From a phage, in the sequence record S69320.2: a DNA stretch of 347 nucleotides. The stretch is one strand, 5' to 3'. Under the pieces are notes generated by a model. The model was given only the letters and a program-made list of their open reading frames with translations, made no database searches and was not told the DNA's origin. The translations under genes and the position numbers were made by a program. Positions 1-347 of this stretch are shown here, one piece after another (the first letter of the stretch is position 1; each line of letters starts with the position of its first letter).

Positions 1-6
1 CATATG
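1..6. other. NdeI recognition site (CATATG) with the gene's ATG embedded at 4-6; engineered cloning junction
   Basis: Exact CATATG at 1-6 seen in the sequence. From memory, native Ff phage has ...TTCAATG here, so the CAT is most likely primer-introduced. The ATG in an NdeI site is the standard arrangement for T7/pET-type expression cloning. Confidence 0.8.
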
Positions 7-129
7 AATATTTATGACGATTCCGCAGTATTGACGCTATCCAGTCTAAACATTTTACTATTACCCCCTCTGGCAAAACTTCTTTTGCAAAAGCCTCTCG
101 CTATTTTGGTTTTTATCGTCGTCTGGTAA
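4..129 (+). CDS. ORF actually translatable from the engineered ATG: 41-aa aberrant product (10 native pX residues plus a 31-residue out-of-frame hydrophobic tail), stop TAA 127-129
   Basis: Direct codon-by-codon reading gives MNIYDDSAVL|TLSSLNILLLPPLAKLLLQKPLAILVFIVVW*. The tail is Leu/Ile/Val-rich because the phage sequence is T-rich and is being read out of frame. This is not a native gene product. Confidence 0.5.
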   Translation: MNIYDDSAVLTLSSLNILLLPPLAKLLLQKPLAILVFIVVW

Positions 130-305
130 ACGAGGGTTATGATAGTGTTGCTCTTACTATGCCTCGTAATTCCTTTTGGCGTTATGTATCTGCATTAGTT
201 GAATGTGGTATTCCTAAATCTCAACTGATGAATCTTTCTACCTGTAATAATGTTGTTCCGTTAGTTCGTTTTATTAACGTAGATTTTTCTTCCCAACGTC
301 CTGAC

Positions 306-314
306 TGGTATAAT
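306..314 (+). promoter_or_regulatory. Extended -10 promoter element (TGnTATAAT), likely the native Ff promoter serving gene V, embedded in the 3' end of the gene X coding sequence
   Basis: TGgTATAAT at 306-314 is a perfect extended -10 consensus. The -35 region at 17-nt spacing (TTTCTT, 286-291) is a poor match, which extended -10 promoters tolerate. Ff phages are known to carry a promoter just upstream of gene V, and gene V starts a few nt past this window in the native genome. The exact promoter assignment is from memory and was not verified. Confidence 0.45.
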
Positions 315-341
315 GAGCCAGTTCTTAAAATCGCATAAATC

Positions 342-347
342 GAATTC
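342..347. other. EcoRI recognition site (GAATTC) immediately downstream of the stop codon; engineered cloning junction
   Basis: Exact GAATTC at 342-347 seen in the sequence. Native Ff sequence after the gene II/X stop is recalled as GGTAATTCACAATG (gene V ribosome-binding site and start). Here it is replaced by ATCGAATTC, so the gene V translation initiation region is absent. Confidence 0.75.

Follow-up and report, generated by a model that had tools for sequence, protein, structure and literature searches.

The stretch of DNA analysed here (347 nt, referred to in its entirety as the window) carries gene X of a filamentous phage between two restriction sites. This raises the questions of whether it is natural phage DNA or a construct made for cloning, and whether it encodes the gene X protein, pX. 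Our analysis indicates that the window is almost certainly a man-made NdeI-EcoRI restriction cassette of M13/f1 gene X that, as written, carries a non-native 1-nt deletion.

We compared the window with 50,697 phage records by megablast, and the matches were 33 Ff-type filamentous phages. In every one of these (33/33) the alignment comprised window positions 4-338 and fell on the annotated overlap of gene II and gene X, located at 496-831 in M13, f1 and fd. M13 and f1 were the nearest matches, with 99.7% identity and a single gap accounting for the shortfall (megablast), and identity to the window was at least 99% in 27 of the 33 records. Because fd was 96.7% identical, the window is of the M13/f1 type and not of the fd type. 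Direct comparison with M13/f1 496-831 gave 335 bases, 0 substitutions and 1 gap. The ATG at window 4-6 corresponds to M13 496-498, the start of gene X inside gene II, and the TAA at 336-338 corresponds to M13 829-831, the stop common to both genes. RefSeq annotates M13 496-831 as gene X, made from an in-frame internal initiation codon in gene II, in agreement with the internal start that a preliminary description of this DNA had given for pX. At the level of sequence, the match to annotated references already settles the identity of the DNA.

The replication initiator pII has pX (G10P, 12.7 kDa) as its C-terminal third (PMC6024766). That source describes pX as essential and its role in the stable build-up of plus-strand ssDNA as unknown (PMC6024766), and the title of a study by Yen and Webster (1982, cited in PMC5405960) states that gene V protein controls the translation of pX and pII. 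A PDB sequence search (E-value up to 0.01) found no entry matching pX. Compared to Ff gene X (RefSeq NP_510886, M13 nt 496-831), the window has the same ATG, the same TAA and the same nucleotides except for one absent G. It differs in that the gene has been taken out of gene II, with restriction sites in place of the GAGGGGG Shine-Dalgarno sequence and of the downstream gene V junction, and in that the open reading frame (ORF) is broken past codon 10, giving 41 aa instead of 111 (Table 1).

Table 1. Features of the window, with positions counted from its first base.
Feature	Position	Strand	Basis
NdeI site CATATG; bases 1-3 (CAT) non-native, in place of TCA (M13 493-495)	1-6		Alignment, site scan
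Gene X of M13/f1 (record 496-831); 0 substitutions, one G deleted	4-338	+	Megablast, alignment, direct comparison
ORF from the NdeI ATG; 41 aa, MNIYDDSAVL (native) then 31 out-of-frame residues, TAA at 127-129	4-129	+	ORF translation
Site of the 1-nt deletion; native GTATTGGACGC becomes GTATTGACGC, one G of M13 525/526 lost; frame shifts past codon 10	33-34	+	Alignment
pX codons 12-111 and native TAA (336-338); PF05155 G2P_X_C, 124.4 bits (cut-off 25)	36-338	+ (-1 relative to ATG4)	Pfam search
59-aa ORF from pX Met53 (ATG159), the first ATG/GTG/TTG in the pX frame; no Shine-Dalgarno sequence	159-338	+	ORF list
ATC spacer, non-native; together with 342-347 equals the EcoRV half-site and EcoRI site of a pBluescript-type polylinker (GAT/ATCGAATTC)	339-341		Alignment; inference
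EcoRI site GAATTC at the exact 3' end, 3 nt past TAA	342-347		Site scan

We assessed the 5' end of the window for departures from the native gene X context. The window begins exactly at its single NdeI site, and CATATG occurred anywhere in 9 of 200 shuffles of the window. The site scan and the alignment to M13/f1 nt 496 bore out the earlier claim that the gene X ATG sits within this site and that the window starts there. The native context that had been predicted, GAGGGGGATTCAATG (TCAATG at the start codon), was indeed the one we observed in M13, f1 and fd. The window's CAT differs from it at 3 of 3 bases, and the chance of finding CAT before a given ATG was 0.019 at the window's base composition. 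None of the 33 Ff phage records matched window 1-3 (megablast). The native Shine-Dalgarno sequence of gene X, GAGGGGG, is cut away in the window; only 3 nt precede ATG4 and they hold no Shine-Dalgarno sequence.

An ATG inside CATATG is on its own no proof of engineering, because the start of M13 gene II itself lies in a natural NdeI site. Of the three natural NdeI sites in M13 (NC_003287.2), one (6003-6008) overlaps the gene II start codon (CDS from 6006); fd likewise has a natural NdeI site over the gene II start, at 6004. The deciding evidence for engineering is that the window departs from the native gene X context.

The 3' end likewise departs from the phage sequence. GAATTC, the 3' EcoRI site named in the preliminary description, forms the final six bases of the window and is its sole EcoRI site. 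A search for GAATTC found 0 EcoRI sites in wild-type M13 and in an fd-type genome. After the TAA the window reads ATCGAATTC where the native sequence reads GGTAATTCA, and the sequence downstream of this TAA in M13/f1/fd is GGTAATTCACAATG, the start of gene V. No alignment to the 33 Ff records reached window 339-347 (megablast). The chance of GAATTC at a fixed place was 3e-4, and jointly with CAT before the ATG it was about 6e-6 (window base composition). The NdeI and EcoRI sites thus sit exactly at the limits of phage similarity, namely the gene X ATG and TAA.

We considered whether the window could be a natural phage variant, or natural genomic DNA that has these sites by chance. M13 does provide a precedent in the natural CATATG on its gene II start codon. 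Against this, similarity was lost at both borders of the coding sequence in 33/33 Ff records, the gene X start is TCAATG in M13, f1 and fd, wild-type M13 and fd are free of EcoRI sites, and the joint chance of the two sites is very small. In addition, the frameshift described below would truncate the essential pII if it occurred here in a phage. Exact-match scans of 2.9 million viral contigs found neither junction (5' or 3') and no instance of the G deletion. A gapped control pattern recovered native Ff from viral and genome contigs, so the scans of those collections could have found Ff. The 5' NdeI junction was also absent from metagenome contigs; this negative carries little weight because the control pattern found no Ff in that collection either. 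Neither natural plasmids nor 5,426 complete E. coli genomes contained a match to the window, and no record identical to the window turned up among these or the phage records. With 0/33 records matching the first three bases, empty exact-match scans and EcoRI-free wild-type phages, we rejected the natural-variant reading, which we regard as scarcely credible.

Scanning of the window for expression signals detected 0 promoter-like and 0 terminator-like sites. An Rfam search (E-value up to 1) gave no match, and the minus strand of the window held no ORF of at least 20 aa. The non-native flanks, the lack of expression signals and the absence of the junctions from natural sequences together argue for an engineered cassette: non-native bases make a restriction site that overlaps the start codon, a second site absent from the source genome lies just past the stop, and the gene's own promoter, Shine-Dalgarno sequence and terminator have been removed. 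With both flanks non-native, the earlier description of the window as a cloned insert, not native genome, holds.

The pET, pT7-7 and similar vectors take ATG-flush NdeI cassettes. In cassettes of this type, as in the window, CATATG covers the start codon, the insert ends in a stop codon of its own ahead of a second unique site (EcoRI), and promoter and ribosome-binding site are left out of the insert. The window differs from them in that its insert is frameshifted. By this reading the gene X coding sequence would have been cut flush at the ATG and 3 nt past the TAA, with the start codon built into the NdeI site, and an expression vector would have provided the promoter, ribosome-binding site and terminator. 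A T7/pET vector may have been the recipient; an NdeI site at the ATG suits many vector families. Three points count against the cassette reading. The source covers 347 nt, and the expression-vector step is inferred. A deposited construct unable to make its own protein is odd and gives some room to a deliberate null or a record error. The G deletion also recurs in an unrelated public contig (L007, described below). A literature search found no stand-alone NdeI/EcoRI gene X construct.

The bases between TAA and EcoRI may indicate how such a cassette was made. The string GATATCGAATTC, the EcoRV-EcoRI segment of pBluescript-type polylinkers, was found in engineered plasmids, and the window's 9 nt past the stop (ATCGAATTC) equal its EcoRV half-site plus EcoRI site. 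This likeness rests on 3 diagnostic bases (ATC) only, and a primer-encoded tail accounts for them equally well. One route would be a PCR product with NdeI in the forward primer and a flush end at TAA, blunt cloning into EcoRV, and excision with NdeI and EcoRI. We put the chance of this polylinker route for the 3' tail at about one in three. A reverse primer with a GAATTCGAT tail explains the 3' bases equally well. We also considered pGEM-T Easy, cloning into which would presumably leave TAA-AATCGAATTC after the gene X stop. This has one A more than the window, and pGEM-T Easy was rejected; EcoRV blunt cloning or a primer tail fits the 3' tail better.

The preliminary description had regarded gene X in the window as isolated as a standalone ORF. 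This part of it did not hold. The native TTGGAC is short of one G at window 33/34, a loss that the description had not reported, and the gene X span is 335 nt in the window compared to 336 nt in 33/33 Ff records. Because of the missing G, the ORF from ATG4 comprises 41 codons, not the unbroken 111 codons of gene X. The pII/pX family domain (PF05155) was found only in the frame downstream of the deletion. The 41-aa product itself had no match in a Pfam search and was not on record in public assemblies. It is hydrophobic, with a GRAVY of +1.34 compared to -0.14 for pX. The cassette as written therefore does not encode pX; ribosomes starting at the NdeI ATG would make a hydrophobic peptide of 41 residues in place of the 111-residue protein.

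We looked for sequence elements that the deletion might have created. TTGACG at window 31-36 is similar to a -35 hexamer, but the promoter scan found no promoter, and the idea that the deletion had created one was rejected. No restriction site created by the deletion was seen on reading the sequence.

We assessed whether the frameshift could be bypassed, either by -1 slippage between 34 and 126 or by reinitiation at ATG159, which would give a 59-aa C-terminal fragment. The pX frame, at -1 relative to ATG4, stays open over 18-338, tetramers that would allow in-register slippage of a single tRNA occur at 75-78 (A_AAA), 90-93 (A_AAG) and 111-114 (T_TTT), and ATG159 lies 30 nt past the stop at 127-129. 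However, these are tetramers only, with 0 X_XXY_YYZ heptamers in 4-129, and there was neither a Shine-Dalgarno sequence before ATG159 nor an Rfam frameshift element. Since the sequence equals native gene X minus one base, nothing in it has evolved for recoding. We rejected a programmed -1 frameshift or structured-RNA reading on the lack of a heptamer and of any Rfam match (E-value up to 1). Bypass is very improbable overall. Judged from sequence features, the ORF from ATG159 is possibly a weak reinitiation product only, and slippage or reinitiation would yield no more than background amounts.

Within window 132-141, a GAGGG motif stands 2-3 nt upstream of ATG139, the start of a 19-aa ORF that shares the frame of ATG4. 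A good ribosome-binding site would need wider spacing, and the motif belongs to native gene X without any evident role.

Most probably the deletion is not biology but an unintended error, made in the clone (by PCR or from an oligonucleotide) or in the sequence as deposited. One explanation is that it is physically present in the clone by accident, through PCR, an oligonucleotide n-1 error or an error in gene-synthesis assembly, so that the plasmid would be an unintended pX-null. Single-base deletions are the typical error of synthetic oligonucleotides, and apart from this one base the insert holds no errors (0 substitutions in 335 nt). At a Tm of 60-65 C a forward primer would reach to window 26-34. 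A long primer would therefore have its 3' end at the deletion or just before it, and an oligonucleotide n-1 error is possible for such a primer only. Priming would, however, be poor from an oligonucleotide that lacks a base at its extreme 3' end, and the typical annealing part of 23-27 nt would stop short of position 33. Frameshifted clones are also usually discarded, not deposited. On balance, we consider an accident in the clone plausible, at somewhat less than an even chance.

Alternatively, the deletion may be confined to the deposited record: the GG doublet could have lost a base through faulty base calling, compression or transcription, and the real clone would then encode intact pX. A sequence that is perfect except for a doublet lacking one base is consistent with this. 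A sequence written from a design (the reference plus added sites) would not drop a base, and the doublet lies ~30 nt into the insert, where sequence is normally well resolved. We hold the record-error explanation tentatively, at less than an even chance and slightly behind an accident in the clone.

Read-derived sequences of laboratory M13 bear on this point. When public assemblies were queried with the 59-aa ORF, three Logan contigs came up. One of these, SRR7430799_1035 (L007), carries the identical G deletion at about 783, flanked on either side by native gene II sequence. The assembly of L007 is visibly poor. It is a fold-back chimera whose first 24 nt match M13 6215-6238 in reverse complement, and the 18 nt at its other end are not from M13. 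Another of the three, SRR5681796_87 (L006), has single-base deletions at about 872, 1384 and 1859, corresponding to M13 nt 568, 1081 and 1557. The deletion at M13 568 falls in AAAA (window 75-78) and cuts gene II/X short at the TAA that also ends the 41-aa ORF of the window. The deletion at M13 1557 is also present in contigs L005 and L008 and is probably a lineage marker, not an error. Because the contigs returned by the look-up all bear M13mp-lineage marker substitutions, they are lab-vector DNA. As an observation on the public data, positions 1-3249 of L005 (JPUP01000080.1, labelled 'SAR11 cluster bacterium PRT-SC02') consist of lacZ-alpha joined to M13 with M13mp markers; L005 is cloning-vector contamination in a public marine single-cell genome assembly.

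Like single-base drop-outs thus occur in read-derived contigs of lab M13, the one in L007 being identical to that of the window, and such drop-outs at this spot keep the record-error explanation alive. The presence of the same deletion in an unrelated contig also suggests that it is perhaps not a one-off cloning accident. We estimated the chance of the same doublet being hit in L007 and the window at roughly 1 in 30 to 1 in 60, taking a target of about 120 nt in which deletions end at the same stop; this is mildly surprising. Loss of G525/526 could accordingly be a real, recurrent gene II/X mutation of laboratory M13, with the cassette derived from such a variant or intended as a pX-null, which we consider quite improbable.

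We also weighed a deliberate frameshift, that is, a pX-null control cassette with almost unchanged nucleotides. The deletion comes as early as codon 11, so that 101 of the 111 residues are lost, and a stand-alone null would be a sensible control because, by the annotation, a gene X knockout in the phage also hits gene II. However, the sequence bears no mark of design such as a new restriction site or an engineered stop codon, a hydrophobic 41-aa peptide would be a poor inert control, and the literature search turned up no matching construct. A deliberate null is unlikely.

Overall, the engineered cassette with its probably unintended deletion is an ordinary artefact of known biology, and nothing in it is biologically new. 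The earlier advice to drop the reading of this DNA as a genomic region or a novel system was well founded, given the non-native flanks and the absent junctions. Anyone using this "gene X" as written for expression, complementation or annotation would obtain a 41-residue hydrophobic peptide or nothing useful. As a cloning artefact of a very well-studied phage gene, the window should be left out of searches for natural genomic novelty.
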